Source of the DNA: a virus
Length of the DNA: 64,000 nucleotides
Strand: one strand, 5' to 3'
IMG/VR virus record: IMGVR_UViG_3300045284_000065
Coordinates: 1-64,000 of that record
Shown here: piece by piece, positions 1 through 47,675 of the stretch
Numbering within the stretch: the stretch's first letter is position 1
How the letters are laid out: every line of letters starts with the position of its first letter
Notes under the pieces: generated by a model
The model's input: only the letters and a program-made list of their open reading frames with translations
The model's database searches: none
What the model was told of the DNA's origin: nothing
Program-made: the position numbers and the translations under genes

Positions 1-270
1 CGCCCGTCACAAGGCGGGCCGCACATCGCGGCCCTCCGCGCCGCGGAGCACGCAGTGCTCCGCGGCGCGGAGGGCGGTCGAGCGCTCGCGCGGGGCGCGC
101 AGCGCCCGGGGCGCGGCCCGGGGCGCGCGCCGCGCGCGCCGCAGGCGGGCGCGCTGGGCGGGCGCACCGCATCGTCGGCGGTGCGCCGCAGCGCCCAGGT
201 GGGCGGCGGGGGGACACCACCGGCACCGCCTGACCACGCTACGCGCTGGGCGCGCAGCGCCCCGGCGCGT
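1..270. repeat. Extremely GC-rich, palindrome-rich non-coding stretch (possible genome-end region)
   Basis: Near-pure G/C with recurring GCGCAGCGCCC / GCGCGCTGGGCG units in both orientations; no credible ORF. Confidence 0.55.
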
Positions 271-587
271 TAGATGGGGGCGGGCGCGTCGCCAGCCGTG
301 GCCCACAGGGGCGGCGAGGTGCTCACCATCGTCACCTCGCACTCGCAGGTGAGCAGGCCAGCCACGCGCCGCGCCTCCCACTCGGTGAACGGGCCAAGGA
401 TGGCCTGTGGTCGGTGGTCGCTCTCCACCGGACGACGCCACTCGTCAACGAACGCCGTGGCACTCCCGTCCCAGCACAGGATCACGTACGTGACGCGCGG
501 GGCCACGCGTGCGAGACGGTCGAGGCGTTCGATCGTCTCGGCGGCGTGCTCAAAGGGGTGCTGTTCCAAGGGGAAGTTGTCAGTCAT
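270..587 (-). CDS. Hypothetical phage protein
   Basis: MTDNFPLEQ... start; ATGA overlap with upstream ORF. Confidence 0.65.
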   Translation of the reverse strand: MTDNFPLEQHPFEHAAETIERLDRLARVAPRVTYVILCWDGSATAFVDEWRRPVESDHRPQAILGPFTEWEARRVAGLLTCECEVTMVSTSPPLWATAGDAPAPI

Positions 588-930
588 CGTGTCGTTCCAA
601 GCTGCTCGGTGGGTGGTAGTGGTTCCAAGGGTTCCAAGGGGCGTGGCTCCCACACTGCGACGTGAGCGTGGGCGATCTTGAAGGCTCGGCGGATGGCCTT
701 GATGAGTTCCAAGCGATCCACTTCCAAGGCATCCAGGGGTGCGTTCCACTCAGGCACTGGTGACTCGTTCCAAGACGGCGCGCACCTCGTCAAGCGTTAC
801 CACGTCACTCCACTCTTCATTGTTGACGCGGTGACTCCACAGCAGGGTGATCGCGATCGGGCAGACCAGTTCCAAGGGCTGCACGTCGGCCTCTTCGGCC
901 TGCTCGTACAGCGGCTCGGTCAGTTCCAAG
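563..930 (+). repeat. Cluster of 8 GTTCCAAG octamers
   Basis: Copies at 563, 594, 622, 631, 706, 767, 869 and 923, all in the same orientation. Confidence 0.9.
584..757 (-). CDS. Small hypothetical protein
   Basis: GTG start VPEWNAP..., overlapping or coupled to both neighbours. Confidence 0.5.
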   Translation of the reverse strand: MPEWNAPLDALEVDRLELIKAIRRAFKIAHAHVAVWEPRPLEPLEPLPPTEQLGTTR

Positions 931-1118
931 TGGTTGTCGGTGTCGATCAGCACGTCGAGCACGTCGTCCCAGCCAGCACCACGCCAATGTGGATTGACCA
1001 TGACGAAGTTCTGCAGTGCTGCGGCGCACTCGGTGGGCATGTTCTCGCGCACCCAACGCAGTTGGCCCGATGGGGATGATGCGTCCCACCCTGAGGAACG
1101 CTGTGTGTCACCGGTCAC
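750..1118 (-). CDS. Hypothetical protein
   Basis: AAGGAG RBS before GTG at 1118; acidic globular sequence. Confidence 0.6.
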   Translation of the reverse strand: MTGDTQRSSGWDASSPSGQLRWVRENMPTECAAALQNFVMVNPHWRGAGWDDVLDVLIDTDNHLELTEPLYEQAEEADVQPLELVCPIAITLLWSHRVNNEEWSDVVTLDEVRAVLERVTSA

Positions 1119-1275
1119 GGTCCATCTCCTTGCCGTCGAATCCGTCCTCGAAACCTGCCTTGAAGTCAGCGAACGTCCCGGCCTTGGCAGCGTCTGCGAA
1201 GTCCCAGCGCGGGTCATAGGTGTCGTCCTCGCGGCGAATCTGGCCGCAGGCGTAGCCAGCCGTGTAGTCGCTCAT
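1108..1275 (-). CDS. Small hypothetical protein (55 aa, MSDYTAGYACG...)
   Basis: Read by hand, below ORF-track cut-off; ATGA coupling with 1272-1541. Confidence 0.6.
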   Translation of the reverse strand: MSDYTAGYACGQIRREDDTYDPRWDFADAAKAGTFADFKAGFEDGFDGKEMDRDR

Positions 1276-1541
1276 GGCGTCACCACCGGAGTCTGCGTGC
1301 GGGTGCGGGCGAGCATCGCCGTGTAGGACTCACCACGGTTGCGGTGCATGTGCTGCTCGGCCGCTGCTTCCTCGGCTGCGTTGTCGGCCATGCACTCTGC
1401 GTACTCGTCCTCGTACTTCCACGGCTTCTCGACCATCAGGACGATGTTGCGAGCCGTTTCGTGGTGTTCCAGCATCCAGTAGGCGAGGCGCACCACCTCG
1501 TCGTGCTCGTTCCACCAGCGGTCTGGAAAGAAGTCAGTCAT
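1272..1541 (-). CDS. Hypothetical protein
   Basis: RBS AAGGAG, typical codon usage. Confidence 0.7.
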   Translation of the reverse strand: MTDFFPDRWWNEHDEVVRLAYWMLEHHETARNIVLMVEKPWKYEDEYAECMADNAAEEAAAEQHMHRNRGESYTAMLARTRTQTPVVTP

Positions 1542-1923
1542 GATCGAATATCTCCTTGGTCACGTTGATGCCAGTTCGGTAGATGGCAGTGATGGGGAGC
1601 ATTCCGATGCAGGAGAGCCAGAACACTCCGAAGCAGATCACGTAGGCCTTGAAGTCAGGCCAGGTCGCCATCGCAGCGAACAGGATGCGAAGGCTGATGA
1701 GGCATAGGGCGATAACGGATGACCACCACAGCCACGGGTGGGAGCCGCGCGCCCCGGCCACCCAGCGGCTGAACCGCCGCCAGGGGCTGGGACCACGGGG
1801 TGGTGCCGGTGGTGACGATGGGTAGATGGGCGGGGGCGGCGGTGCCGGGGTGCTGTACTGCACCACCGGCACCTCGGGCCGCGGCGTGGTCGTGAGGCTC
1901 TTGGCCTTGAAGGGCGTGGTCAT
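1534..1923 (-). CDS. Membrane protein, Pro-rich N-terminus plus 2 TM helices
   Basis: Two hydrophobic segments. Confidence 0.7.
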   Translation of the reverse strand: MTTPFKAKSLTTTPRPEVPVVQYSTPAPPPPPIYPSSPPAPPRGPSPWRRFSRWVAGARGSHPWLWWSSVIALCLISLRILFAAMATWPDFKAYVICFGVFWLSCIGMLPITAIYRTGINVTKEIFDHD

Positions 1924-2156
1924 GATGCATCCTCGCCAACGAGGCCAATCATGCCCTCAACCTCGTCGTCCTGTTGCTGACCTGTGTAGTCAGTGACGAC
2001 GTAGGAGTCGGAGTATTCGAACTCGTACTCGGTGAGCACGCCTTGGTTGTTGCGGGCGTAGTCGTTCGCCTCGTTGAAGCTGTCGAACATCGCACCCTCG
2101 TCGCCGTCGATGGTGACGGTCCACTTGTAGACGTTCATGATGCGCTGATCCACCAC
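1920..2156 (-). CDS. Hypothetical protein
   Basis: Operon coupling; acidic. Confidence 0.65.
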   Translation of the reverse strand: MVDQRIMNVYKWTVTIDGDEGAMFDSFNEANDYARNNQGVLTEYEFEYSDSYVVTDYTGQQQDDEVEGMIGLVGEDAS

Positions 2157-2905
2157 TCCTGGGCAGGCTCGCTCTCGCCCTCGTTGTAGCGCTCCACCTT
2201 GTACTCGGCCTGGTTGGCAGAGGCGAACACCCAGCCGACCATCATCTGGACCGCCTCGGCTGGGCTGGTGGCAGTGAACGTGTTGCGGATGACCACGTCG
2301 TACTCCTGCTCGTCATCCTCCCCTGAGGTGTCGAGTGTGTCATCGGACACGGTGTACTCGTCGCGGTCCTGGGTGTCGGTGTAGCTCTCACGGTCCTGGC
2401 CCTCGGTGCCTTCCAGCGGGACGCCATCGACCGTGGCGACTCCGTCGTCATCGATCATGAGCACGCTGCCCACTGGCGTCTCGCCCTTCGGCTGGTGGTC
2501 GCGGTGGGCGATGCCCCGGACGTAGTCCACGAACGCTCCACAAGTGGGGCAGGCGTCGAGCGAGGCGTCGAAGTAGTACGAGCAGTGGTCGCAGAACCAG
2601 CCGTCCTCGGGCAGCGGGCCGGTGATGGTCACCGTGCGGATGTCGCCTGCGTTGGGCAGTGCGACCACCTGGGTGCCTTCCTCGACGTTCATCGGGTTGG
2701 TGAGCCATTCGACGTACATGTCCCAGGCCTGCTGGCGATCGCTGGCAGCGAACGTGGCCGACGTGGTGAAGCTGTACTCGCGCTCGGGAGCGATCATCGC
2801 GTCCTGCGCTGCTCGCCACTCGTCAAAGCCGAGACGGGTGTCGCATGTCGCCACGGCACGCTGCCAGGTGGCGTATTCCTCGGTGACCATGTAGTACCCG
2901 CTCAT
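2135..2905 (-). CDS. Hypothetical protein with zinc ribbon
   Basis: WFCDHC...CPTCG; ATGA overlap at 2902-2905. Confidence 0.7.
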   Translation of the reverse strand: MSGYYMVTEEYATWQRAVATCDTRLGFDEWRAAQDAMIAPEREYSFTTSATFAASDRQQAWDMYVEWLTNPMNVEEGTQVVALPNAGDIRTVTITGPLPEDGWFCDHCSYYFDASLDACPTCGAFVDYVRGIAHRDHQPKGETPVGSVLMIDDDGVATVDGVPLEGTEGQDRESYTDTQDRDEYTVSDDTLDTSGEDDEQEYDVVIRNTFTATSPAEAVQMMVGWVFASANQAEYKVERYNEGESEPAQEWWISAS

Positions 2906-3237
2906 GACCAGGTCGCCTTGTGCCCGCCGAAGTCGACGTTCTTGTAGCACCCTGCCTGGTAGGCCACCTCGCCCACCTCGTCCATGTACACGTCGGTCTG
3001 CTCGCCCTTGACGAACACCTTGCTGCCCCGCACCATCTCACGGGTGACCGTGTAGGTGTCGTTGGCGGTGAGGCTGATCCGCACCCGGTAGCCGTGGCCG
3101 ACCGGCAGCAGCAGGTCGGGGTAGCGCTCGTCGTCCAACGACGGCACCATGATCGCCCGCATGCCGCTGATCGCCATCAGGTTGCCGACGCCGATCTGCT
3201 GCAGCGTCTGCTGCGGCACCATCTCTCGCTCGCTCAT
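2902..3237 (-). CDS. Hypothetical phage protein
   Basis: AAGGA RBS; extended -10-like TGCTAGCAT at 3286-3294. Confidence 0.75.
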   Translation of the reverse strand: MSEREMVPQQTLQQIGVGNLMAISGMRAIMVPSLDDERYPDLLLPVGHGYRVRISLTANDTYTVTREMVRGSKVFVKGEQTDVYMDEVGEVAYQAGCYKNVDFGGHKATWS

Positions 3238-3304
3238 TGTGGTTGGTCCTTCTCAGTAGTGGGCGTGTCGCCCGGTGTGTTACTCATGCTAGCACCCGTG
3301 GGCA

Positions 3305-3550
3305 CTAATGGGCACTGTCGTCGTCTGGAAAGTCGAGTGTGTCATCCGTCACCAGGCGGAACTGCGAGAGCAGCGAACCCAGCCACGCCTGCCCCTCGGT
3401 GAGTGGAGGCCAGGTGTCACCGCATAGGCAGATATGGGCATCACGGTGCCCAGCCACCCGTGAGCAGAGGTGGTGCCAGATCGTGGTCACCGGCTCGTCC
3501 TCGCTGCTGGGGATCACGGTCTGCCACTCGCAGTCACACTCGCTCATCAT
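3305..3550 (-). CDS. Small Cys/His-rich hypothetical protein
   Basis: CxC...C...H...HxCxC pattern; coupled start. Confidence 0.55.
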   Translation of the reverse strand: MMSECDCEWQTVIPSSEDEPVTTIWHHLCSRVAGHRDAHICLCGDTWPPLTEGQAWLGSLLSQFRLVTDDTLDFPDDDSAH

Positions 3551-3612
3551 CGCCGCACCACCGATACGAAGCAGACCACGATGAACGCCATGCATCCGAT
3601 GCCGAACCACAT
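3547..3612 (-). CDS. 21-aa hydrophobic micro-peptide (MWFGIGCMAFIVVCFVSVVRR)
   Basis: Fills the gap exactly, with TGATG and ATGA overlaps on either side. Confidence 0.45.
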   Translation of the reverse strand: MWFGIGCMAFIVVCFVSVVRR

Positions 3613-3761
3613 CACGCACGCTCCGCGTTGTACTCGGCACAGCGCTCGCGCGCCTCGTCCTCGAAAGCGAAGGCGTCGATGACCTCGCCGTCCAACAGAA
3701 TCAACCAGGGCACCTGGTAGCTCTCGTCGTACTTGACCACGTACTCAACTGCGCTGCTCAT
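3612..3761 (-). CDS. Small hypothetical protein (49 aa)
   Basis: MSSAVEYVVKYDESYQVPW..., read by hand; good codon usage. Confidence 0.6.
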   Translation of the reverse strand: MSSAVEYVVKYDESYQVPWLILLDGEVIDAFAFEDEARERCAEYNAERA

Positions 3762-3764
3762 GGC

Positions 3765-4430
3765 TCACCACCCCCACCAGGGAGTGTTGCGCTCTTGGTC
3801 GCGCACACGGCGGCACTCGGACTGGCACCACGAACCCTGCCACTGGCTGCGCTGGCCGTAGCGACGGTGCAGCGTGGTCATCTCGGGCAGGTTGTCCGGG
3901 CTGATGTGCGGCCAAATGTCGTGCCAGACCACATGCCAGCGGGTTCCCTTGGGCCACTTGATCGTCATCGCGTCTCCCTGGTGGATGGTGACCCGGTCGC
4001 CGTACTCCTGCACGAACCAGGCACCGATGGTGTCGATGATGCGCTGGTCGCTCTCGACCACGTCAACGTGAGTGAGCACGTCCAGCATCGCGCCGACCAC
4101 GCAGCCCATGCCCAGCCCATTGACCAGTCCGGTGGCCTCGGGGAGGTTGGTGCCGTACAGGTCGGAGGCTGCGACGGCCAGGAGGTGATCGTGGCGCTCT
4201 GCGGTGGTGTCACTCATCCACAGTGTGTCATCCACCACCAGCTTGGCGTACTCACCCGGAGCGCAGCCACGGCCGTGCATGGCGTATTCCAGGCTCGCCA
4301 TGAAGGTGCCGAACGACTCGTTCGGCCCTCCCACCGTGAAGCGTGCGACGCGCACGCCGTTGGTGTCGAACTCCGGGCCTCGGTAGGCCAGGCGCTCCAT
4401 CCGGTTCATCGTTGGTGCGGTGGTGGTCAT
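3765..4430 (-). CDS. Class I SAM-dependent transferase (spermidine synthase-like)
   Basis: VNGLGMG motif I, VDVVE acidic motif II, IHQGDA, WHVVWHDIW. Confidence 0.75.
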   Translation of the reverse strand: MTTTAPTMNRMERLAYRGPEFDTNGVRVARFTVGGPNESFGTFMASLEYAMHGRGCAPGEYAKLVVDDTLWMSDTTAERHDHLLAVAASDLYGTNLPEATGLVNGLGMGCVVGAMLDVLTHVDVVESDQRIIDTIGAWFVQEYGDRVTIHQGDAMTIKWPKGTRWHVVWHDIWPHISPDNLPEMTTLHRRYGQRSQWQGSWCQSECRRVRDQERNTPWWGW

Positions 4431-4621
4431 GACGCCCCTCCTGAGGTGTCGGGTGTGTCATTCGACACAACATTGTCGGGGAGTGGGAACGTCCAGCCCT
4501 TGGCAGCGTGTGCATCGCTGCACACTCGGCAATCCGGGTTGCGGGGCTGTTTGAGGATGATGCCCGTGACGGGCAGGCCACACAGGGTGGCCTGCCCGTC
4601 GTTGGAGAAGTGGCTCATCAC
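4427..4621 (-). CDS. Small zinc-binding hypothetical protein
   Basis: H...LCG...CRVC. Confidence 0.6.
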   Translation of the reverse strand: MMSHFSNDGQATLCGLPVTGIILKQPRNPDCRVCSDAHAAKGWTFPLPDNVVSNDTPDTSGGAS

Positions 4622-5424
4622 GCCGCCTTGCCCTTGCCCTTCTTGGCAGCGTCGATGGAGGCCTGGAAGGCGTCCATCAGGTTGTCGATGGCAGCGGGTG
4701 CCTGGACGGTCGCCTTGGGAGCGCCACCGGCCTTGGAGTCCACGTACGCCTGCACCACCGGAGCGGTGTCGTCGGTGACGATCGGAGCATCGATGCCGAT
4801 CGCTTCGATCAGGCTGGTCGCCATGCCGACCTCGGTCTTGGTGAACCGGAAGTCGTCATCCAGCGGGATGGGCTTGCGGATGGCATCGGCGGTGAGCACC
4901 ATGAGCAGGTCACCCTCGTAGGTGAGGATGGCGTACCGGGCCGGTCCACGCATCGCCAGCTGCAGGAGAGCGCCCACTTTGAGCGACTTCATCCCGGCGA
5001 ACAGGAGCGCGAGCGCCTGGGTGGCGGGGCGGCTGGGCTTGCCCTTCTCGACCTTGGGGCGCACCTGGTACAGCTTCTCGGTGAGGTACTGACCGAAGTC
5101 CTTCACCGGCACGAAGCTGATGATTTCCGCCACGCCCTTGGGGGACGTGCAGGCGGCAATCTCGTCGTCGTCCAGTGCGACCCAGGAGCCGTTGGTGGCC
5201 TGCGCCATGCGGACCACGTCGGTCTGATGGACGACCTGCTCGGTGTCCTTGCGGATCGGCGCACGGCCGATCGGGACGTTGGGGTCGCCGTTGTAGAACT
5301 CCTTGCGGACGACTCGCGTCTCTTCGGTGGCCGTGTACACGCCCAGCTGGATGTTGAGCATCCCAGCGGAGACGGTGATGCTGGTGGTCGCCCGGGTGGG
5401 CATTCCAGCGAGGGAGGTGAACAT
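4618..5424 (-). CDS. ku: Ku-like DNA end-binding protein
   Basis: N-terminal RATTSITVSAGMLNIQLGVYTATEE and C-terminal NLMDAFQASI match prokaryotic Ku; RBS GAAGGA. Confidence 0.8.
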   Translation of the reverse strand: MFTSLAGMPTRATTSITVSAGMLNIQLGVYTATEETRVVRKEFYNGDPNVPIGRAPIRKDTEQVVHQTDVVRMAQATNGSWVALDDDEIAACTSPKGVAEIISFVPVKDFGQYLTEKLYQVRPKVEKGKPSRPATQALALLFAGMKSLKVGALLQLAMRGPARYAILTYEGDLLMVLTADAIRKPIPLDDDFRFTKTEVGMATSLIEAIGIDAPIVTDDTAPVVQAYVDSKAGGAPKATVQAPAAIDNLMDAFQASIDAAKKGKGKAA

Positions 5425-5463
5425 TGGTTGGTCCTTCTTTCGGGTTGTCGGGGACATGCACAT

Positions 5464-5721
5464 TCAATCAGGTGTGGGCACGATTGGGCACTCTTCCCTG
5501 AGGTGTCCAGTGTGATACTCGTCACACACTCGGCACCGGTAGGCGACGAGCTTGCCGATGCGGTAGCGCATCTTGACGGTGCCAGCGTTGTAGGCATCGC
5601 AGAGAGCCTGCGCCGCCTCCTGGGTCAGGGGGCGCTTGGCGCGGCCACGGGTGGTGTAGTGGTCGCGTGGGGCGAACACCGGAGCCACCCGCCCTTCGCG
5701 GGTGGCTCCGATCATGGTCAC
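5464..5721 (-). CDS. Hypothetical protein with YxCxxCxxYHxG motif
   Basis: AYRCRVCDEYHTGH. Confidence 0.65.
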   Translation of the reverse strand: MTMIGATREGRVAPVFAPRDHYTTRGRAKRPLTQEAAQALCDAYNAGTVKMRYRIGKLVAYRCRVCDEYHTGHLREECPIVPTPD

Positions 5722-7040
5722 GGCGTGCCGCCCAGCGCCTGGGCCAACGGATCGTTGGGGTCGGGCATCGGTGCGAACTGCGCCGCCGCCGCCTCGGCGT
5801 TGTAGCGGGCCTGCTTCTCGTCTTCCAGCAGCGATGAGCGGATGGTCTGAGCGTTGAGAATCTCATCCGCCGTGATGCGGTGGCGCTCATCGAACATGCC
5901 CAGGAAGATTTCGAGCGCCATCTCCACGCCGTGGATGCCGATGTTGCGCTGGATGCGCTGCAGCAGGGCCGTGGACACCGGAATGTTGATCTTCCGGTTC
6001 TGATAGGCGGTACGGAACGCCTCGGCCAGGCGGTGCAGGTTCTCGTTCTTGATGAGCGTGTGCTCCACCACGGGGTCGTAGTCCCACAAGATGTGGTCGA
6101 AGCGCTGGTGAAGTGACTTGTTCATCTTCGCCATATCCTCGTATCCCTCGTTGTACGTGGTGATGACCCAGCAGTCTTCGTGCAGCCGCACGAACTCGGC
6201 CATGACCACGCCGCCCTTGACGATCGCCTTGCCACGGTTCGTGAACTCATGGCGGTGGTCGAGCACCGGGTTGAGGCTGATGGCGTAGCGGGGCGGGATG
6301 GCGTTGATCTCGTCCACGTAGAGGATGCCCCCGGTCTGCGCCCACATCTCGACAGTGCCGGGGAGGTGAACGATGCGATCGCGGCCCGTGCGCTCATCGA
6401 CCATCGACACCGGCTGACCGAAGAAGTCGTAGTCGGTGACACCGGCCGAACCGGACAGGGTGTAGATGGGCATCGGCTTGGGCAGTCCCCGTTCCTCGGA
6501 CAGCTTCTCGGCCAGCTTCTGGACGATGAGCGTCTTGCCCGACTGCGTCGGACCTTTGAGAGCGAACGAGACGGCGTAGCCCTCGTTCTCGCGGCGGTTC
6601 TCGTCACTGGCGTAGGCGAGCAGCGTCTCAATGTCCGACTTGCCGTTCTTCATGGTGCGGCTGATGTACCGGGCGACCTTGCTCCCACGGCCGCACAGCG
6701 GGCGCAGGTGGTCGAGGCGCTTGTCCATCGGGTCGGTGATCGGATCGGTCAGCGATGACTTCGCCACCTGCTGCATCAGCTGCTGGGCGGTCGATGCGTC
6801 GTCACCTGAGGTGTCGAGTGTGTCATCCGACACAGCCTCTTCGACAGGCTCGGGCAGGTCAGCCAGGACACGGGGCAGCACGTAGGCCACGCTGCCATCG
6901 AACTCGACAGTGATCTTGCGGCGGCGCGGATCGGAATCCGGGAACACCTTGCTGGTGATGACGGTGACGGTCTCCCCCATGAGGGGACCCGACACAACCC
7001 GGTACTTGAAACCGGGGAGGAGTGCTTCGGCTGCGGCCAT
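5718..7040 (-). CDS. MoxR/CobS/NorQ-like AAA+ ATPase
   Basis: Walker A GPTQSGKT, Walker B LYVDEIN, sensor TTYN, LHQRF. Confidence 0.85.
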   Translation of the reverse strand: MAAAEALLPGFKYRVVSGPLMGETVTVITSKVFPDSDPRRRKITVEFDGSVAYVLPRVLADLPEPVEEAVSDDTLDTSGDDASTAQQLMQQVAKSSLTDPITDPMDKRLDHLRPLCGRGSKVARYISRTMKNGKSDIETLLAYASDENRRENEGYAVSFALKGPTQSGKTLIVQKLAEKLSEERGLPKPMPIYTLSGSAGVTDYDFFGQPVSMVDERTGRDRIVHLPGTVEMWAQTGGILYVDEINAIPPRYAISLNPVLDHRHEFTNRGKAIVKGGVVMAEFVRLHEDCWVITTYNEGYEDMAKMNKSLHQRFDHILWDYDPVVEHTLIKNENLHRLAEAFRTAYQNRKINIPVSTALLQRIQRNIGIHGVEMALEIFLGMFDERHRITADEILNAQTIRSSLLEDEKQARYNAEAAAAQFAPMPDPNDPLAQALGGTP

Positions 7041-7144
7041 GACGTGCTTCCTTTCGGGAGGCGGTTGGGTTCGGTGAGAGAGACATTACACCCGTGGAGG
7101 GCGGGATCAACACCTGTGGGCAGAAACGTGCAGGAGCAGGGAGG

Positions 7145-7173
7145 TTGCATGCTGGTGCCCACGGGAGTACGAT
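7145..7173 (+). promoter_or_regulatory. Sigma70-type promoter, probably giving a leaderless transcript
   Basis: TTGCAT-N17-TACGAT ending 7 nt before GTG 7181; no RBS. Confidence 0.6.
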
Positions 7174-7180
7174 CCTTCCC

Positions 7181-9250
7181 GTGACCACACAACCCGCACC
7201 CAAGAAGACGCGCAAGCGCCTTCCACCAACCACCGAGATGGGCCGTCAGCTGATGAAGATGGGCCGCGAGAAGATGGCCGAAGAGGCCGCTCGCACCGCT
7301 GAGAGGATGCTCAACGAGCGCACCCAGCGCGAGGAAGCAGAGCTTGCTCTCCACAACCGCAGCCGCAACGTGTCCACCGCCGCCGCCGTGTCGCGAGGAC
7401 TGCTCGGCAGCATCGTTGGCTCACTCGCATCGGAGGACATAACCCCGTACATCGATGTGCAGCCGGTCGAACTGTTCAGCAGCCTGGAAGCGTGGACCGA
7501 CTTCCATCAGATCCACATTCGCTACCACCAGGACCCTGATCCCCGGATCATGGCGGCGGTGCTGCGTGGCCTGATGTACCACGAAGGTGGTCACATTCGG
7601 TGGACGATCCCGTTCGCTGAACTGCGAGAGATGGCGGGCGTATCTGCTCAGGGGACGGGCGAAGAGATGCGCCGCCTGCAGCGGGCCTGGAACGCTCTAG
7701 AGGATCAGCGCATGGAGACGGCAGTCGTCAGCGACTCACCGAACAAGGCTGGGTTCTTCGTCCCGATGGTGATGATGGAACTGCTCAACACGGTCGACAA
7801 GGCGACGATGAACTACCCGCTGCTGGTGTGGCGTCGGTACCTGCCGAAGCACATTCGCGACGCCTGCCGCGCCGCCTTCGTGGCGTTCCAGGGTGGCGAC
7901 GAGCACCTGACCCTGCAGATCGAACAGTGCGTGGACGACTACGTGAAGGCGACCACGGCCTGGCAGATGTGGGCAGCCGTGTGCTGGTTCGCTGAACTGA
8001 CCAACCTGCTGCAGATGACCCTGCCCCAGGCAGCCGAGACTCACTCCAAGCAGAAGTCAACGCGCCAGGGCGCTGATGGCGAGACGCAGCAGAGTGGTCC
8101 CGCCCCGGCCGAGAAGATGGAGATTCCCATCGACCCGACCCAGGACGCCAGCCCAGCCGGTGGTGGCGACGAGGACGAGCAGCCCGCCGAAGAGGCCGGT
8201 GGCGAGGCCGGTGGCGAGCAGGAAGGCGAAGGCGAGAGCGCCGCAGCGGGCGGCGAGGGTGGCGAGGAAGGCGACGGCGAGGGTGGTGACGAGGGTGCTG
8301 GCGACAGCCCCGACAGCGACGCCACCAGCGGCGAGAGCACGCAGGGAGCAGAGGGCAGCGGTGCCGGTGCTCGCAGCGAGGATGAGGCCAACCATGACCC
8401 GCTCTCCCAGGAGATGCTGAACGAGGCGATGGCCCAGGCAGAGGATGACCGGTACAACAGCCGCTCGCTGGATGCCGACGTGGACGCCTTCAACGACGCC
8501 CTGGATCGCCGCGGCTCCAAGCTGGGTGCGTACACGCTGCACCCCGAAGAGGACGTGGATCGCCTCATCGCCGCCGACGCGCTGGCTGATGACCTGGTCG
8601 GCTCGTTCAACCAGGCGACGATGGATCGCATCCCCTCCTGGGTCGAAGGACAGCGCTCGGGCCGACTGAACGTGGGCCGGTACATGACCCGCCAGCCGGG
8701 TGACATGGAGTACTTCACGCAGTGGATGGACGACGACGTGCCCGGCTACAACCTGGCCGTGTCGGTCCTGCTCGACTACAGCGGTTCCATGAGCCGCAGC
8801 GCCCAGGACTTGGCCCAGGCGGGCTACGCCGTCAAGACGGCCTGCCAGCGCCTCGACATTCCCTGCACCGTGGTGCTGTGGGATGACGACGCCAAGGTGC
8901 TGTGGGATGGCGAGGAAGAGGCCGACATGCTGCCCCGCATCGTCTGCACCGGCAACACCGACCCGACCTGGGCGCTCGCTGACCTGGACAACCAGCGGTT
9001 CAACAAGGTGCGCCACCTGGTGCTCATCATGACCGATGGCGTGTGGTCGGGCTATGGCGACCGGACCCTCGCCCCGTACTGCATCGACGGGCGCATGATG
9101 ATGGGCATCGGCTACGCCCTGGACGACGAGAAGAAGGCGCAGGGCCGTACGGCCAAGCTGATCGGCTACGGCTGCCCGGACGCCTTCCCGATCACCAACC
9201 TGCAGGAACTGCCCTGGCTCCTGGAGGAGTACCTCATCCGCATGGCCTGA
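7181..9250 (+). CDS. CobT-like VWA protein with HEXXH domain and acidic linker
   Basis: YHEGGH, NALEDQRME, long G/E/D linker, MIDAS LLDYSGSM, IMTDG. Confidence 0.85.
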   Translation: MTTQPAPKKTRKRLPPTTEMGRQLMKMGREKMAEEAARTAERMLNERTQREEAELALHNRSRNVSTAAAVSRGLLGSIVGSLASEDITPYIDVQPVELFSSLEAWTDFHQIHIRYHQDPDPRIMAAVLRGLMYHEGGHIRWTIPFAELREMAGVSAQGTGEEMRRLQRAWNALEDQRMETAVVSDSPNKAGFFVPMVMMELLNTVDKATMNYPLLVWRRYLPKHIRDACRAAFVAFQGGDEHLTLQIEQCVDDYVKATTAWQMWAAVCWFAELTNLLQMTLPQAAETHSKQKSTRQGADGETQQSGPAPAEKMEIPIDPTQDASPAGGGDEDEQPAEEAGGEAGGEQEGEGESAAAGGEGGEEGDGEGGDEGAGDSPDSDATSGESTQGAEGSGAGARSEDEANHDPLSQEMLNEAMAQAEDDRYNSRSLDADVDAFNDALDRRGSKLGAYTLHPEEDVDRLIAADALADDLVGSFNQATMDRIPSWVEGQRSGRLNVGRYMTRQPGDMEYFTQWMDDDVPGYNLAVSVLLDYSGSMSRSAQDLAQAGYAVKTACQRLDIPCTVVLWDDDAKVLWDGEEEADMLPRIVCTGNTDPTWALADLDNQRFNKVRHLVLIMTDGVWSGYGDRTLAPYCIDGRMMMGIGYALDDEKKAQGRTAKLIGYGCPDAFPITNLQELPWLLEEYLIRMA

Positions 9251-9274
9251 GTGGCCCACTGGATATGGCGATAT

Positions 9275-9317
9275 GCCCCCCGACCTTCCCCCCGCGAGTG
9301 GAGAAGGTCGGGGGGCA
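9275..9317 (+). terminator. Strong hairpin after VWA gene
   Basis: GCCCCCCGACCTTC...GAAGGTCGGGGGGC 14-bp stem; no U-tract. Confidence 0.5.
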
Positions 9318-9338
9318 TCGTCGCGTACCGTGTGAGCC

Positions 9339-9617
9339 GTGAGCGAGGACCGGATGGAGCAGCACCGCCGCGTGCTGCTGTGGCTCGCAGAGCGTGCCTC
9401 TGACGAACCCCTTGTGCCGTGCGGCACATGCCGTCATGACATTGACGACCACCTGGGTGGCCTGAGCATGTGCATGTTCCCGGCCACCATTGGCGCACCG
9501 GCCCGCCTATGCCGGTGCGAGGTGTTCGATCTATCGACGGAGCAGGATGACGACGAGGATGATGACGAGCACCAGCAGCAGGAACCCGCCGCCGATGTAG
9601 ATCCCGTCAGCGAGTAG
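9339..9617 (+). CDS. Small Cys/His zinc-binding protein
   Basis: CGTCRH...H...C...CRC; 3' end overlaps an antisense ORF. Confidence 0.5.
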   Translation: MSEDRMEQHRRVLLWLAERASDEPLVPCGTCRHDIDDHLGGLSMCMFPATIGAPARLCRCEVFDLSTEQDDDEDDDEHQQQEPAADVDPVSE

Positions 9618-9629
9618 CGCGGCGAGCAT
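9531..9629 (-). CDS. 32-aa single-TM membrane peptide
   Basis: MLAALLADGIYIGGGFLLLVLVIILVVILLRR; TGATG coupling. Confidence 0.65.
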   Translation of the reverse strand: MLAALLADGIYIGGGFLLLVLVIILVVILLRR

Positions 9630-9835
9630 CAATCCCCCGTGGTGAGAGCGAGCCACCCCAGGGACACGCAGGCGAGGCCAGCGACCACCAGGAGCCAATG
9701 GAACTCCCAGGTGGTGCTCGCGCGTGCCACCACCAGGCGCACGCATTCGATCACGAACAGGATGAAGGCGACCAAGAACATGACCTCGCCGAAACTGTTG
9801 GCAGTCATGATTTCGGCCACTAGGGCTGTCTTCAC
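9629..9835 (-). CDS. Small 2-TM membrane protein
   Basis: AAGGAG RBS; two hydrophobic helices. Confidence 0.7.
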   Translation of the reverse strand: MKTALVAEIMTANSFGEVMFLVAFILFVIECVRLVVARASTTWEFHWLLVVAGLACVSLGWLALTTGD

Positions 9836-9853
9836 GGGATATCTCCTTATGGG

Positions 9854-10768
9854 TTACCGGCCGAAGCCGCGTCCACCCGCATAGGTGCGGACAGGACCAA
9901 GCCTCGACGCACTCGGGCCGATGGCCGGAGGCATTGCTCCAAGGCCAGCGGATGTCGCCGGTCCCGTGCGATTCACGGTGCCACCTCCACCCCATCCGCC
10001 AGTTGTTCCAACGCCTCGACTCAGGCCGAAGGTGCGCTGTGGCTGGGCCGAAAGACTCGACGTAGAGAATCCACCGACCGAACTGCCCGGTGCTGTTCCA
10101 AGGGCCGGAATGGCGGTGCTCGGTGCAGTGGGTGATCCCGATGCCGAGGGGAGCGAGGGCATCTGCAGAGTGGAGCGCGCGGCGCTGTTGGGGGCGAACC
10201 CACCGGTCGGCGCAGCAGGCGTAGCTGCCGCCGCGGCCCGAGGTGCCGGTCGGTAGATCGTCATGTCCTTGGTGTTGTAGAGGCCGGTGGTACCCCGAGG
10301 CACGGCGGCGTTCTCGGGCGTGTCGGTGATCGTCCGCTGCGTCGCCGCCTTGTACTTGGGAGGGACGTAGGCCTTGTTCTTGATGACCGACCCTGTTCCA
10401 AGGGAGGGCTTCAACGTCTCCTTCGCCAGTTCGTACTTGGTGGTGGCGATAGGGGGAGCGCTCGGGCCTCCACCACCTCCACCGCCGCCGCCACCGCCGC
10501 CGCCGCCGCCGCCTCCACCGGAGCCACCACCGCCGCCGCCACCCGAGGAGCCACCGCCACCACCGGAGCTACCCGCCTTGAAGGGCAGCCCCTTGACGAC
10601 GAGCGGGTTGGTGGCGTGCGCCCCACCAGTCCCCCACACACTGCCGACCGTGAGCGTTCCCGTGGAGGGACCACCGCCCTTGGCCTTGTAGTCAGCCTTC
10701 TTGCTGCTGCTGGCAGTCTTCACCTTCGACTTCGCATTGGCGATGTAGGACTTTCCCCAAGAGGACAT
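9854..10768 (-). CDS. Basic Gly/Ser/Thr/Pro-rich low-complexity protein with poly-Gly tract
   Basis: Poly-G run encoded at about 10468-10565; very few acidic residues. Confidence 0.7.
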   Translation of the reverse strand: MSSWGKSYIANAKSKVKTASSSKKADYKAKGGGPSTGTLTVGSVWGTGGAHATNPLVVKGLPFKAGSSGGGGGSSGGGGGGGSGGGGGGGGGGGGGGGGGGPSAPPIATTKYELAKETLKPSLGTGSVIKNKAYVPPKYKAATQRTITDTPENAAVPRGTTGLYNTKDMTIYRPAPRAAAAATPAAPTGGFAPNSAARSTLQMPSLPSASGSPTAPSTAIPALGTAPGSSVGGFSTSSLSAQPQRTFGLSRGVGTTGGWGGGGTVNRTGPATSAGLGAMPPAIGPSASRLGPVRTYAGGRGFGR

Positions 10769-10780
10769 TGTTCCAAGCTC

Positions 10781-11059
10781 CTATCGCTTCGGCTTACCGA
10801 TGGGCTGCCCGCCCTTGCGGTGCTGCAGGAAGTGCTGACTGTGCCGTGACGGTGGGGTCACCGGCTTGCCCGCCTCGCGCCATCGCGGTCGGGGATCAGT
10901 TCCAAGCGTGGGCATGCACACAGCTGGGTGCATGCCACCAGCAGTGACGTGAGCGCCCTTCTCACCTGGGTCGCAGATGCCGCCGCCGCGGACGACGTTG
11001 AGCGGCTGAACAGGACGCCGCTTGGGGTCGTTGCCCCGATCGGGAGGGGATCCCTTCAC
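10781..11059 (-). CDS. Basic hypothetical protein
   Basis: ORF track; fits gene order. Confidence 0.5.
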   Translation of the reverse strand: MKGSPPDRGNDPKRRPVQPLNVVRGGGICDPGEKGAHVTAGGMHPAVCMPTLGTDPRPRWREAGKPVTPPSRHSQHFLQHRKGGQPIGKPKR

Positions 11060-11175
11060 AGCGCGCAGATTATCACCCGATGTTGTTCCAAGCAGGTGTT
11101 GCTGGACGCAATGTGTTACTTGATGGCGGTATGCTTAAACCACCACCAGTCACCACAAACCAAGGACCAACCGCC

Positions 11176-11826
11176 GTGACCTACAACAAGTTCGAGGACC
11201 CAACCTGGCAGGCAGAGCAGACCGCTGACTACAACCGCCGCCAGCAAGAGATGTGGCACAAGATGTGGCACCCAGAAGGGAGCGCCGCACCCCAGCAGCG
11301 CTACGGCAACGGGGCTGGTCAGACGCCCTACTTCACCCCCGGTGGGTTCAAGGCTCTCCGGGCGGCGATCTGGACAGCGATCTTCGGGCCGATCATGCTC
11401 CGCATCGGGCGGAACTGGTACGAGCACACGGGCGACTGGCAGTACGCCCTCGCCAAGGCGACGATCCTGTCGGCCATGTGGAAGGTGTGGGGCACGGCCG
11501 TGGTGTGGTGGATGGCCGTGAACTATTGCCTCAACAACCCGGACACCAACGTCTTCACCTCCCTCCGCGACAGCAACGGGATGCCGGTGCCCAACAACCC
11601 GACCGTCGTCGGCTGGTGCGCCTTCCTGCAGCTGTTCGTGGTCACGCCCGCCCTGGCTGTCGCCTACTGCCAGCTGGTCGACAAGAGCATGTTCAAGCAC
11701 CGCATCGCCTACCGGATCATCAGCCCGGTCCACAAGATGCTGGGCCGGTGCCCCTGGGTGGTGCTCATCTCCTTGGTGCTGCTGCCGATCTTCTTCTACA
11801 TTCAGATGACCGTCGTCCAGGTGTAA
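11176..11826 (+). CDS. Multi-pass membrane protein
   Basis: AAGGA RBS plus GTG; 4 hydrophobic segments; TATGCT -10-like at 11130. Confidence 0.75.
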   Translation: MTYNKFEDPTWQAEQTADYNRRQQEMWHKMWHPEGSAAPQQRYGNGAGQTPYFTPGGFKALRAAIWTAIFGPIMLRIGRNWYEHTGDWQYALAKATILSAMWKVWGTAVVWWMAVNYCLNNPDTNVFTSLRDSNGMPVPNNPTVVGWCAFLQLFVVTPALAVAYCQLVDKSMFKHRIAYRIISPVHKMLGRCPWVVLISLVLLPIFFYIQMTVVQV

Positions 11827-11879
11827 GTCATCAGATACCCTGTGACGGGTAACACACCACCCGCCCACTGAGGAGTGTC

Positions 11880-12329
11880 ATGGCTGAGAAGCTCAAAGAG
11901 TTCGACTTCGCGTCGTCTAGCCCGCGTCGAACCGATGGGAGCTACACCTACCCCTGGGATGACTGGTTCGACGGGGACATCTGGAAGCTCGACCAAGGGG
12001 TCGACTTCCCCGGTCACCCGCTGATGATGGAGCGCATCATCCGCACGCGTGCGACCAACCGCGACGCCAAGGTCAAGCTGCGCCACCTCGACAGCGACGT
12101 GATCTGCAAGAAGTGCGGACAACCCGGGCCGGGGTCGCTGGTCATCCAGCGCTACGACATTGTCGGTCCCAGCGAGGCCAAGAAGGCTGCGACCAAGGCG
12201 AAGCGCGCGGCCACCCGTGAAGCCGCCGCACCCAAGGTCGAGACGGCCAACGGTGACGATGCACCGGTCAACGGCAAGCTCGTCCACGCTCGCCGCGTCA
12301 AGCCGAAGCGCGTCGTCGCCAAGGCCTGA
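11880..12329 (+). CDS. Hypothetical protein with YPWDDWFDG motif and Lys/Ala-rich tail (possible DNA binding)
   Basis: GAGGAG RBS; histone-like AKKAATKAKR tail. Confidence 0.75.
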   Translation: MAEKLKEFDFASSSPRRTDGSYTYPWDDWFDGDIWKLDQGVDFPGHPLMMERIIRTRATNRDAKVKLRHLDSDVICKKCGQPGPGSLVIQRYDIVGPSEAKKAATKAKRAATREAAAPKVETANGDDAPVNGKLVHARRVKPKRVVAKA

Positions 12330-12528
12330 GCCTCTCCGCCCCGGCGGACATCGCGTTAGTAACTCGCCGTGGGATATGGGGATATGCCCCGGCGAGGGTG
12401 CAGGCGCGCCATTCGTTATGGTTGGTCATACCAGAGTATGAGGGCGTAAGCCCTAGTAGATAGGGATAAAGGGAACGTATGTTCGTCCACCCCGCGTGGG
12501 GTGGGACCCGTCAATCGGGGTACTGAAC

Positions 12529-39579: not shown

Positions 39580-40023
39580 TCAGTGATCGGCTTGAAGCGC
39601 TGCGAACGCTTTGCCTACATCCAGTGCGAACGAGCGGGTCGGTGGTTGCCGGTTGAGGATCACCTTGTGCTTGTCAGCAAGCGAAAGGATACATTCGATC
39701 TGCTCCCGTGTCCACAACCGACGCCCCTTCGTGGGGTGCTTCGCACCCGGCTTGGCGTTGGTCGGCTGGGACCGGTAGGGGGAGCGGGGCAGCAGGCCCT
39801 GCGTCTCCCACAGGCGGATCGAGTTCTGGCTGTAGCCGATGGCCTTGGCGAGCGCCGAGATGGGGAAGAACTGGACGACCTTGCCGTTGACGACGCCATC
39901 GGTCGGGCGTGCATCCCATATCGGCTTATCAGGAGGGGGACCCTCCTTCTTGTCTCGGTTGACCGGCTTGCGTCGGCCGGGGTAGTCCAGGTCACCGAAG
40001 AGTCGATCGACCGAGTCACTCAC
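39580..40023 (-). CDS. MerR-like HTH DNA-binding protein
   Basis: ISALAKAIGYSQNSIRLWETQGLLP...GRRLWT. Confidence 0.8.
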   Translation of the reverse strand: MSDSVDRLFGDLDYPGRRKPVNRDKKEGPPPDKPIWDARPTDGVVNGKVVQFFPISALAKAIGYSQNSIRLWETQGLLPRSPYRSQPTNAKPGAKHPTKGRRLWTREQIECILSLADKHKVILNRQPPTRSFALDVGKAFAALQADH

Positions 40024-40453
40024 CCTGCAGATGGTCCAGCATCTCTTGAGTGGCCTCACGCCACTGCACCAGGGGGGTGACGGCCCACACCGGCATCTGC
40101 CCACCGGGGTACAAGGTCTGCACCACCGACTGGAAGATGGCATCGACACTCATGCCTCGGTCGACGGCTGCGCGCGGTGGCCGACCGATCCGACCCGGCA
40201 CCTTGGGTGTCGTGGACTGGTTCTTCCGGTAGGCCGGGACGACACCGTGCATCTGAGAACGGTGACGGGCCTGAGCGTTGGCCGACTTGAAGTCGTCGCG
40301 GCCACACTCGGGGCACGCCTCGGCAGGGATGTGGGACATGACGTGCCCGGACAGGGCCTGGGCGTTGGGGTACACCTTGCTGCACTCCGGGCAGACGAAG
40401 GTGCTGTCGGGGATCAGGTCGGGATCTTCTCGGATCATGTCTTCGGCCATCAT
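40016..40453 (-). CDS. Tandem C2H2 zinc-finger protein with AT-hook-like motif
   Basis: FVCPECSKVYPNAQALSGHVMSH; CPECGRDDFKSANAQARHRSQMH; GRIGRPPR. Confidence 0.8.
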   Translation of the reverse strand: MMAEDMIREDPDLIPDSTFVCPECSKVYPNAQALSGHVMSHIPAEACPECGRDDFKSANAQARHRSQMHGVVPAYRKNQSTTPKVPGRIGRPPRAAVDRGMSVDAIFQSVVQTLYPGGQMPVWAVTPLVQWREATQEMLDHLQGE

Positions 40454-40808: not shown

Positions 40809-40845
40809 GTGTGTAGTGGTCACGGTGGAGTGTGACACTACACAC
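40809..40845. promoter_or_regulatory. Intergenic inverted repeat (operator or hairpin)
   Basis: GTGTGTAGTG(G)TCAC...GTGACACTACACAC. Confidence 0.6.
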
Positions 40846-40853
40846 GTTAGTAA

Positions 40854-41565: not shown

Positions 41566-41596
41566 ACCACCAGTGTAGGGCACAGGTGGGCACTTA

Positions 41597-46622: not shown

Positions 46623-47675
46623 TCAACCATGCTTGCGGTTCCAGGGCAGCGTCCATCCGGCCACGCGGTAGTCCTCGGGGTCACCGATCTCGCCCTCAGG
46701 CAGGGCTTCAATGCGGGCGCGCGCTGCGTCGATCAGGGGCTGCTCGGCAGCCAGCTTCGACTCCAACCGGTCCACGATGCGCTGGTTCTCCTCGCGCCGC
46801 GCCCGGTCGATCGCCGGGTCAGCGACCGCCGTGCTGCCCCACCACCCGGTGAACAGCTGCCACGGGGTCTGGCCCTCGCGCAGGTCCAAGGTTGAGCCGG
46901 GTGCCATCAAGTCCTCGAAGAAGGCGTCGAAGTAGGCCTCGACGTACTCGGGGCTGTAGCCCTTGGCGAGGAACTGGCTGCGGATGTACCCGATCGCTGG
47001 GCCGCGGTGCATCACCCGGTGCTCGCGCCAGTGCGGGTACTGGGCGAGGATCTCCGTGAACCACAGCGTCTCGAACCGGGTCGCCAGCTGGGTGGCCGGG
47101 TCGGTGGTGACCGTGGCGGTCCCCTGGGCTGCGGTGGGATCGTCCCCGATCACCCCGGAGGGGTTCAAGTCCCCTTGATGTTCGCGTTCGTACTTCAAGT
47201 TGGGCCTCCCCTGATCGCACTCGCGGTGGACTGGAAGCTTGCCGTGGAGCCAGCCCTCCTTGGGCTGGACGGGGAAGGTGCAGACACAACAGGGTCCTGA
47301 CCAGCGGTTGGGCTTCCTGAGGGCCGGAGGCCCATACGACGACGAGTTCTTCTCCGTAGGAGAAGAACGTTTCTTTTCAGTCTCATTTGAGACACCTTCT
47401 GAGACACCCAGCAGCAGGTAGGAGTAGCTGTTCTGGCCCCGGCTGGTGACCCTCGGGGTGCGGCTGATCAGGCCTGCGGACTCGGCTCGGACCAGCAGGC
47501 GCGCCACCGTGGGCACAGGGATCTGAGTGCGACGCGCTAGCTCCCGGATCGACGGGTAGGGGTCGGGCAGGTACTTCGCCAGCGCCCGCAGGATGGTCTG
47601 CATGCGCTTCCAGGTCTGCGCCGGTATCTCACTCGGTCGCTTGATGCTGCTGATCTGGACTGCTACTGTTGCCAC
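46623..47675 (-). CDS. N-terminal winged-HTH protein, replication-initiator-like
   Basis: YPSIRELARRTQIPVPTVARLL...GLI.R...NSY; upstream of dnaB/dnaG. Confidence 0.65.
   Translation of the reverse strand: MATVAVQISSIKRPSEIPAQTWKRMQTILRALAKYLPDPYPSIRELARRTQIPVPTVARLLVRAESAGLISRTPRVTSRGQNSYSYLLLGVSEGVSNETEKKRSSPTEKNSSSYGPPALRKPNRWSGPCCVCTFPVQPKEGWLHGKLPVHRECDQGRPNLKYEREHQGDLNPSGVIGDDPTAAQGTATVTTDPATQLATRFETLWFTEILAQYPHWREHRVMHRGPAIGYIRSQFLAKGYSPEYVEAYFDAFFEDLMAPGSTLDLREGQTPWQLFTGWWGSTAVADPAIDRARREENQRIVDRLESKLAAEQPLIDAARARIEALPEGEIGDPEDYRVAGWTLPWNRKHG

Follow-up and report, generated by a model that had tools for sequence, protein, structure and literature searches.

Two families of short phage repeats come closest to the subject of this report. 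The SAS and ESAS repeats of Cluster K mycobacteriophages were described in 2011 (PMC3203893), and their role was still without a functional test in 2025 (PMC12699233). PeSL units of T4-type phages join an early promoter to a stem-loop (Arbiol et al. 2010, PMC2839356; Comeau et al. 2014, PMC4122927), and PeSL recombination shuffles open reading frames (ORFs) and forms mini-circles (PMC2839356, PMC4122927). Here we analyze a 29-bp element present six times in the window, that is, bases 1–64,000 of the 91,554-bp linear IMG/VR viral contig IMGVR_UViG_3300045284_000065 (~79% complete). All six copies lie in one leftward block of accessory genes (750–7040, minus strand). We put at about 0.5 the probability that the element is a lineage-specific, bipartite gene-junction signal that acts in cis on this accessory operon and doubles as a cassette boundary. 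Judged by analogy, SAS/ESAS appear to be its closest counterpart in function and PeSL its closest counterpart in evolutionary behavior, the element being a member of neither family.

Comparison with Described Repeat Systems

SAS/ESAS and the window element are alike in being asymmetric and lineage-specific, with 6–19 copies that share one orientation and are confined to non-structural genes. A Shine-Dalgarno core stands 3–8 nucleotides before start codons in SAS/ESAS, an arrangement with a counterpart at 4 of the 11 copies considered below. In both, the upstream stop codon may fall inside the repeat, an imperfect inverted repeat lies upstream with RNA pairing unsupported, and the conserved positions exceed what pairing with ribosomal RNA explains. 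The sequences are unrelated (the SAS consensus is GGGATAGGAGCCC), and ESAS has 17-bp inverted repeats where the window dyad has arms of only 5–6 bp, which makes the window element an analogue rather than a member. Whereas SAS is nearly always intergenic beside a start codon, the window element is embedded in coding sequence, and two of its six copies lie deep in ORFs with no start codon. Unlike SAS/ESAS, moreover, the window copies demonstrably bound cassette indels.

Like the window element, PeSL are short repeats with a regulatory character that separate small, non-essential genes within a hyperplastic region, and for both, indels or replacements between close relatives end at the repeats, implying recombination between copies. 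PeSL are intergenic and carry a sigma-70 promoter and a terminator hairpin; the window element has neither promoter nor terminator and is translated. Some distant relatives described below are more PeSL-like than the window itself, namely L025 and L028, with promoter cassettes, and L033 and L038, with a hairpin plus leader. New with respect to both SAS/ESAS and PeSL are the translation of the element, its position partly deep inside ORFs, and its presence or absence as ten in-frame codons.

Stoperators, the sites of L5 gp71 in Cluster A phages, are likewise asymmetric, oriented with transcription, recurrent along operons, and often placed at gene ends. As cited in PMC3203893, they are 13–14 bp long, occur at 20–30 sites across the two genome arms of a temperate phage, and serve as binding sites for its immunity repressor. 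The window, by comparison, has six 29-bp copies of unrelated sequence in a single operon and, among the proteins scanned, no sign of lysogeny functions. Rickettsia palindromic elements, which are bacterial, genome-wide, palindromic, and 100–150 bp long, are inserted in frame in protein genes; they resemble the window element as hydrophilic in-frame inserts that are present or absent between homologues, and differ from it in size and symmetry, as the window unit measures 30 bp and its dyad no more than 5 bp.

Six Copies of a Bipartite Element

A first-pass annotation of this DNA had reported six co-oriented 29-bp elements, and all six were found at the positions and spacings it gave. Its plus-strand reading was correct in coordinates only, as the genes lie on the minus strand and the functional reading is the reverse complement; the copies are named here on the gene strand, from E6 (6833–6805) through E5, E4, E3, and E2 to E1 (1118–1090). 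The distances between copies also hold, but the recurrence of ~1.1 kb is not a period: spacing tracks gene size and is 1290, 1056, 613, and 1548 bp in a close relative. With the copy at 6805 as query and up to three mismatches, three copies are found against 0.00 expected (100 shuffles), and a pattern of the 16-nucleotide core, with 0.21 matches expected, finds five exact copies and, at 11842, a weak site on the minus strand. When the six copies are turned into a weight matrix that is run over the full 91,554-bp contig, they score 34–46 bits, with the next-best site at 14. The family consists of exactly six copies on one strand, all within 1–7040, with none in the other 84 kb, structural genes included; the repeat is real and no artefact.

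The alignment of the element comprises 11 copies, of which the window contributes six and a relative the other five. This relative is one lineage (a 48.7-kb IMG/VR contig, with three JGI soil contigs being the same phage) that is 81% identical over the block, and all DNA comparisons of element copies below refer to it. On the gene strand the element is bipartite, with a 5′ half consisting of the 16-nucleotide core GTGWCSRRTGACACAC and a 3′ half ending in CCTCAGG(A/T)GG. Across the 11 copies, the first 16 nucleotides keep the invariant frame G-T-G-n-C-n-n-n-T-r-w-C-A-C-A, and C-A-G is invariant near the 3′ end. Type I copies run from the core into CGACACCTCAGG and continue A/T-GG; type II copies (E1 and the relative's orthologue of E6) retain only TCCTCAGG. 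Wherever a gene follows, CCTCAGG(A/T)GG reads as a Shine-Dalgarno site with the next ATG 8–9 nucleotides on.

The same 29 bp had been described as a CCTNAGG palindrome plus a GTG-N8-CAC dyad. The bipartite organization and the dyad are real, although the dyad is weak, and CCTNAGG is unremarkable (19 sites in place of ~31 expected); what had been missed is the probable role of the CCTNAGG end as ribosome-binding site for the gene that follows on the other strand. As a candidate restriction-type target, CCTNAGG is neither avoided nor enriched in the genome. The dyad in the 5′ half, GTGTC-N4-GACAC, comprises three invariant pairs and one pair with a single compensatory change and three breaks. 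It is imperfect in 5 of the 11 copies and displays no significant covariation, since 80 of 500 shuffles do as well.

Reading Frames and Adjoining Genes

Frame a of the element is open and encodes V-[ST]-x-D-T-x-D-T-S-G, frame c contains a TGA inside the element, and frame b, also open, is never used; over seven independent loci, frame a is used five times and frame c twice. Five of these loci are gene ends, and the other two are linkers between protein modules that are separate or otherwise joined in other phages. All copies do lie within ORFs, as first claimed, but three of them occupy the last 13–20 codons, one carries the upstream stop, and two are in inter-module linkers.

The junction layout is clearest at E4 (4440–4468, minus strand), which forms the tail of a 64-residue zinc-ribbon ORF (4427–4621) in frame a. 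AGGAGG stands 6 nucleotides before the ATG of the methyltransferase gene (4430), and the upstream TGA overlaps the same ATG. Three copies in the relative (L3477, L2864, and L1316) are arranged in the same way: in all four, an ATG follows 8–9 nucleotides past the element, preceded at 5–6 nucleotides by AGGAGG, AGGTGG, or AGGAGA, and in three of the four the upstream TGA overlaps this ATG. This layout is present in 4 of the 11 copies in two phages, with three different downstream genes, and is not found at E6, E2, E5, or E3. E3 (3324–3352, minus strand) ends the MMSECDC ORF (3305–3550) in frame a with its 5′ core intact. At the type II copy E1 (1090–1118, minus strand), the TGA of the element (1110–1108) is the stop of ORF 1108–1275, read in frame c, and the first codon of the element, GTG (1118), lies 7 nucleotides past AAGGAG (1131–1126); this GTG is the likely start of a gene running to 750.

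E5 (5497–5525, minus strand) is a variant in which GTATCACAC replaces GATGACACAC and the TGA is lost. As had been noted, it is read in another frame, namely, frame c, which encodes CDEYHTGHLR in ORF 5464–5721 and continues to a stop just before the Ku leader; E5 ends 26 nucleotides upstream of TGATTGAAT (5470–5462). The remaining two copies are internal, and the reported identity of VSDDTLDTSG in two unrelated proteins refers to them. E6 (6805–6833, minus strand) is a consensus copy in frame a that supplies codons 70–79 of an AAA_5 ATPase, with no gene start after it. It occupies the sole hypervariable linker of this ATPase (14 homologues aligned), between the N-domain and the PITDPMDPRLDHLRP motif, and the element peptide is present at this locus only in the five closest ATPase relatives (71–81% identity). 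E2 (2322–2350, minus strand) is an in-frame 10-codon insert comprising codons 201–210 of ORF 2135–2950. This ORF is modular: its residues 211–271 match stand-alone proteins of 65–99 residues in other phages (P0145, P0138, and P0146), and its N-terminal parts match other small proteins. Because the downstream module stands alone elsewhere, the module joint at which E2 sits is a gene boundary elsewhere.

Just upstream of E2, the same ORF contains an acidic linker (2351–2413, minus strand; EGTEGQDRESYTD-TQDRDEYTV) with an internal 8-residue tandem. This linker is near-identical in eight or more metagenomic proteins that are unrelated in other respects (P0128, P0130, P0131, P0133, P0142, P0144, P0149, and the window ORF), where it is found N-terminally, C-terminally, and between modules. 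Its DNA includes an element-like CGACACC-CAGG and is not repeated in the DNA examined; the linker may thus represent another in-frame junction module, with a wider distribution than the element.

Selection on the Nucleotide Sequence

The proposal that selection acts on the nucleic acid rather than the peptide, made originally from the use of two frames, is now well supported. In the frame-a copies, the rare codons ACA and TCA, which make up 5.1% of Thr and 7.0% of Ser codons, respectively, are invariant, and the third codon always ends in T despite changes in the residue (GAT, AAT, and GGT). E5 encodes the conserved zinc-ribbon motif C-D-x-[YW]-H-T-x-H-L, reading C-D-E-Y-H-T-G-H-L-R where Mycobacterium phage Phabba has C-D-Y-W-H-T-T-H-L-K, a match that indicates a function of this peptide itself. 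Even so, it is spelled with five rare codons (TGT, TAT, ACT, GGA, and AGG; joint usage ~5 × 10⁻⁶), and these spellings are the ones that match the element.

Four orthologous pairs can be compared between the window and the relative. Their first 16 nucleotides are identical at 63 of 64 positions (P = 2 × 10⁻⁵), against a block background of 81%, and their last 13 nucleotides are identical at 40 of 52, which is the background level. The 3′ half is perfect at E4, where a start codon follows, and has decayed to GACTTTCCAGA at window E3, which lacks the following gene; the canonical E3 tail is retained in three relatives, and in the relative read as DNA a gene starts 8 nucleotides past it. With the core conserved and the 3′ half kept only before starts, the two halves are under different constraints, the 3′ half behaving as a ribosome-binding site and the 5′ core probably having another sequence-specific role.

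Cassette Indels and Recombination between Copies

Of the roles offered by the first-pass annotation, recombination points for the shuffling of gene cassettes are the only one with direct comparative support, in the form of cassette indels and a hybrid copy. In the relative, the gene order is zinc-ribbon ORF, element, gene A, gene B, element, methyltransferase; in the window, it is zinc-ribbon ORF, element, methyltransferase. The two-gene cassette of the relative spans 584 bp between two copies, and the window has the single copy E4, a hybrid that combines the relative's left copy in its 5′ part with the 3′ flank of the right copy. A crossover inside the shared last 13 nucleotides would yield exactly this hybrid. 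With the hybrid in the window and the two cassette-flanking copies in the relative, the comparison captures such a swap directly. A second cassette in the relative, of 478 bp, begins directly after L1316, the orthologue of E3. The expectation that relatives differ by gene blocks bounded by these sites was thereby borne out, the first cassette lying between two copies and the second starting at one. A 55-residue (MSDY) gene, which precedes the MMSECDC gene in the relative, is translocated in the window, where its 3′ end abuts E1.

Variation is also observed at the level of the element itself. Aligned with ORF 2135–2950, the homologue P0128 displays a clean gap across the joint of exactly the 10 element-coded residues, with the V kept at the empty site. 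P0122, which is 81% identical to the 64-residue ORF, ends in NVVAS where the window has NVV, 10 residues, and AS, consistent with presence or absence of 30 nucleotides at a locus seen as protein. The copies evolve in concert: E6 is identical to its paralogue E2 at 28 of 29 positions and to its own orthologue at 24 of 29, and all four other close relatives have the type II peptide at the E6 locus. Since E6 is closer to a paralogue than to its orthologue, gene conversion among copies within a genome is indicated. The recombination part of the finding is well supported.

A search of sequencing runs listed no RNA run with this stretch. Three soil DNA runs, in which the stretch is kept as contigs, listed no joints at copies, and their low coverage near E4 was given no weight. 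A pattern scan of metagenomes returned 16 loci. Multiple copies occur at just three of these, each of which belongs to the phage already represented by the IMG/VR relative; the other 13 are single-copy matches with unrelated 5′ halves and a GC fraction of 0.43–0.71, and were treated as chance. IMG/VR searches with P0005 or the ATPase profile found, aside from the same relative, nothing above 46% identity.

Proposed Function and Alternatives

According to the junction-signal reading, the 3′ half (CGACACCTCAGG) would provide the Shine-Dalgarno context of the next cistron, and the longer 3′ form, ending in overlapping TGA/ATG, would couple upstream termination to the downstream start; the anatomy supports such an expression role. 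The core GTGWCSRRTGACACAC would most likely be recognized by a phage or host factor that tunes expression at the junction, as proposed for SAS/ESAS. Because the element is open in frame a and brings its own TGA in frame c, it could sit in any gene tail or linker, providing the last codons of any upstream gene. And because the same 29 bp recur in one orientation at successive junctions of a phage that encodes RecA, the copies would also act as portable homology for recombination, with RecA as the putative recombinase, so that genes between them could be deleted, inserted, or moved as cassettes while the copies convert one another. One short sequence would then do three jobs, as a protein tail or linker, as the translation signal of the next gene, and as homology for gene swaps. 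The accessory regions of phages hold most of their unknown genes as well as anti-host functions, and how they are rebuilt so fast is only partly understood. The 16-nucleotide core is well suited as a target in the search for a factor that recognizes elements of this kind, SAS/ESAS included. Practical uses are modest: the element may help predict cassette boundaries in metagenomic phages and could serve as a portable junction in phage engineering.

Several observations weigh against this reading. E6 and E2 stay conserved with no downstream start, E6 as an island in a hypervariable linker in five relatives, and so ribosome binding alone cannot account for the element. Given the lack of significant covariation, the dyad lends no support to an RNA hairpin or to a strictly palindromic operator. 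The preference for frame a may point to a useful peptide. Finally, the empty sites in P0128 and P0122 are known as proteins only, and the DNA comparison comes from one lineage.

A first alternative, tentative and rather unlikely in our estimation, holds that the copies are stoperator-like operator or roadblock sites, with a phage protein binding the core on DNA to shut the operon off. The overlap with ribosome-binding sites would then be secondary, and tails and linkers would house the copies for no other reason than their tolerance of a fixed 29 bp. All copies are indeed co-oriented with transcription, and the core is conserved whatever the frame, including at E6 and E2. The GTGTC-N4-GACAC dyad is joined in type I copies by a third GACAC one turn away. 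In relatives, promoters are crossed by operator-like inverted repeats (GTATCACAC / GTGTGATAC), and E5 carries the same word; E3 and E5 end 26–29 nucleotides upstream of −10-like hexamers; and candidate DNA-binding proteins of the phage include a MerR-like (gene at 39580–40149), a C2H2 zinc-finger (40016–40453), an RHH-like (just upstream of ~40853), and a winged-HTH protein (46623–47675). Yet the one variable pair of the imperfect dyad is broken in three copies, the third half-site is missing from type II copies, and no copy adjoins a regulator gene, the dyad that follows the RHH-like gene resembling the element only loosely. The phage looks lytic, and neither an integrase nor an immunity repressor was noticed among the window-phage proteins scanned (part of the ORFs). 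An operator would also leave unexplained why the 3′ half persists only where a gene start follows. With stoperators proper, which the first-pass annotation had invoked, the copies share co-orientation, whereas length, sequence, copy number, and spread differ and no repressor is linked to them.

It is improbable that the element represents a selfish mini-insertion compatible with coding, in which case 30 bp (10 codons, open in frame a) would spread after GTG into gene tails and linkers through a dedicated or recombination-based mechanism, like a far smaller counterpart of the Rickettsia palindromic elements, and any expression role would be incidental. The exact presence or absence of 10 residues with V kept in P0128, with which P0122 is consistent, would follow directly, and the sequence contexts of the copies, seven or more, are unrelated to each other, with a hydrophilic peptide encoded in tails and linkers. 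However, neither a transposase or homing endonuclease nor a target-site duplication was noticed; the copies number only six and share a single operon and orientation; purifying selection acts on the core between relatives; and the boundaries of the empty sites are those of proteins only. We consider equally doubtful a version in which the 30-bp unit is an actively spreading adaptor, inserted after GTG into tails and linkers by a phage function. Such an adaptor would always terminate an upstream gene in frame a or c and always give the next gene a ribosome-binding site, so that any two genes could be joined; if real, no smaller mobile junction element would be known, and soil phages could use it for plug-and-play gene exchange.

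Very little probability attaches to internal promoters of a phage-specific transcription system in the style of T7-like phages, which have repeated 23-bp promoters. The copies are co-oriented, long, highly conserved, and ~1 kb apart, and the operon repeats of distant relatives are promoter cassettes. The element contains no −35 or −10 motif, though, its flanks are not conserved, and a promoter and terminator scan called no promoter anywhere in 1–12,500 and no terminator at the copies. Searches for PF00940 (single-subunit RNA polymerase) and for sigma-70 region 2 yielded nothing in the 91.5 kb of this contig, although the contig is only 79% complete and the PF00940 control matched nowhere. At E4, with the ribosome-binding site inside the element and the ATG 9 nucleotides after it, there would be almost no room for a leader.

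It is just as hard to credit that the conserved object is the peptide V-[ST]-x-D-T-x-D-T-S-G, as a docking site, degradation tag, or protease site of polyprotein-like fusions. Five of the seven independent loci share a frame, the tail ends five proteins and is invariant in homologues that are 57–73% identical overall, and ORF 2135–2950 and its homologues look like module fusions via shared acidic linkers. Against this stand the reading of E5 and E1 in another frame, the invariant rare codons of the frame-a copies, the close homologues that lack the peptide, and the paralogous copies that are 28/29 identical as DNA. Scarcely tenable, finally, are nut- or put-like antitermination or RNA-processing signals on a polycistronic transcript: the copies are co-oriented within a transcribed region and recur at ~1 kb much as RNase III sites do along the T7 early operon, but they have no boxA/boxB-like anatomy, no two-stem put RNA, and no conserved hairpin (5 pairs at the core, −4.9 kcal/mol, no covariation, no T tract), an Rfam search of the element gave no match, and no terminators in need of override are predicted in the block.

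Promoter-like Regions and the Wider Phage Group

Three promoter candidates of the type typical of this phage family were noted on the minus strand, none of which is called by a strict consensus promoter scan. P1 (7083–7110; TTGATC, 16 nucleotides, TAATGT) is a putative sigma-A-like promoter of the block, and its −10 hexamer and leader are conserved in the relative. The P2 region (5462–5491), between E5 and the Ku ATG at 5424, consists of GTGCCCA-N3-GTGCCCA followed by TGATTGAAT. The P3 region (3274–3315) has GTGCCCA-N3-GTGCCCA, the extended −10-like TGCTAGCAT (3294–3274), and the leader GAGTAACACACC, which is similar to the leaders of the relatives' promoter cassettes; P2 and P3 may also be promoters, and theirs are the −10-like hexamers that follow E5 and E3. 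The repeat GTGCCCA-N3-GTGCCC(A) occurs three times, always on the minus strand (3299–3315, 5475–5491, and 41577–41593), the third time in the spacer of a strong TTGATA-N17-TACACT promoter-like site (41600–41572). A regulator of host-polymerase promoters may use this repeat as its operator.

A profile of the ATPase retrieved 14 further IMG/VR contigs at 37–46% identity, almost each with a repeat family of its own in the same operon; lineages with such repeats downstream of the ATPase are L025, L027, L028, L029, L032, L033/L034/L038, and L036. In L025 and L028, these are sigma-A-type promoter cassettes (TTGTGA, 17 nucleotides, TACACT) followed by a GGTATCACACC leader and a ribosome-binding site, and in L027, they are leaderless promoters overlapped by inverted GTATCACAC words. 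In L033, L034, and L038, a stop codon is followed by a long hairpin (outer arms GTGTC/GACAC), then by a CA-rich leader and, ahead of the ATG, by CCTGAGGAGG. Between phages of this group (L033 versus L038), the hairpin displays compensatory changes, and cassette differences between L033 and L034 are bounded by repeats of the CA-rich leader. The region is hyperplastic, with lineage-specific junction signals, and the window element looks like a compacted form of the junction typical of this family, a short dyad plus CCTNAGGAGG ribosome-binding context absorbed into coding sequence. The promoter word TTGTGATACC of distant relatives was considered as well and forms no repeat family in the window genome.

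The weak seventh core match, at 11842–11870 (plus strand), is a leader-like GGGTAACACACC followed by GAGGAG and an ATG (11880), and it resembles the leaders of the relatives' promoter cassettes. Another site considered as a copy and set aside is a perfect inverted repeat with 10-bp arms (GTGTGTAGTG / CACTACACAC) at 40809–40848 (minus strand), intergenic after the RHH-like gene and near the MerR-like and C2H2 zinc-finger genes, whose hairpin resembles the 29-bp element only loosely. This dyad could be a terminator or an autoregulatory operator.

Genomic Context of the Leftward Block

The window has a GC content of 65%, and the contig encodes RecA, family-A DNA polymerase, DnaB, primase, SNF2 helicase, Ku, endolysin, and baseplate proteins, a gene content that identifies it as a large myovirus of actinophage type. 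The closest cultured phages infect Gordonia, Brevibacterium, and Mycobacterium and reach only 27–33% protein identity. A megablast search with bases 1–8000 against 50,697 phage records gave no match, and tblastn matches were distant only, with the AAA ATPase ~27% identical to Gordonia and Brevibacterium phages and the zinc-ribbon ORF 33% identical to Phabba. The ATPase family counts more than 150 metagenomic relatives, many from contigs of 107–130 kb, which suggests a large group of uncultured soil phages with genomes of ~115–120 kb.

Nearly all genes lie on the minus strand, and a plus-strand block (~7149–12329) parts the leftward block (7040–1) from the remainder. The accessory genes that accompany the six copies (750–7040, minus strand) are the AAA_5 ATPase, the zinc-ribbon ORF, Ku, the 64-residue ORF, the methyltransferase, and small ORFs with no known relatives. 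The ATPase is MoxR/CobS-like and forms a divergent pair (5718–7040, minus strand) with a 700-residue protein (~7149–9250, plus strand) that displays weak similarity to phage "cobalamin biosynthesis" (CobT-like) families. Phage Ku is known from Corndog and Omega, and the presence of Ku and RecA together in one phage is unusual. ORF logic places the start of the Ku gene at 5463 (4618–5463, minus strand), and a GAAGGA ribosome-binding site precedes ATG 5424; the latter (MFTSLAGMP), which is also the start in the relative, is most likely the true one. The leftward block extends past the contig end at base 1, and a 3.5-kb contig from the probable source metagenome shares window bases 1–49 and reaches further left. 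Given this overlap, the operon, and possibly more copies of the element, would continue beyond the contig end.

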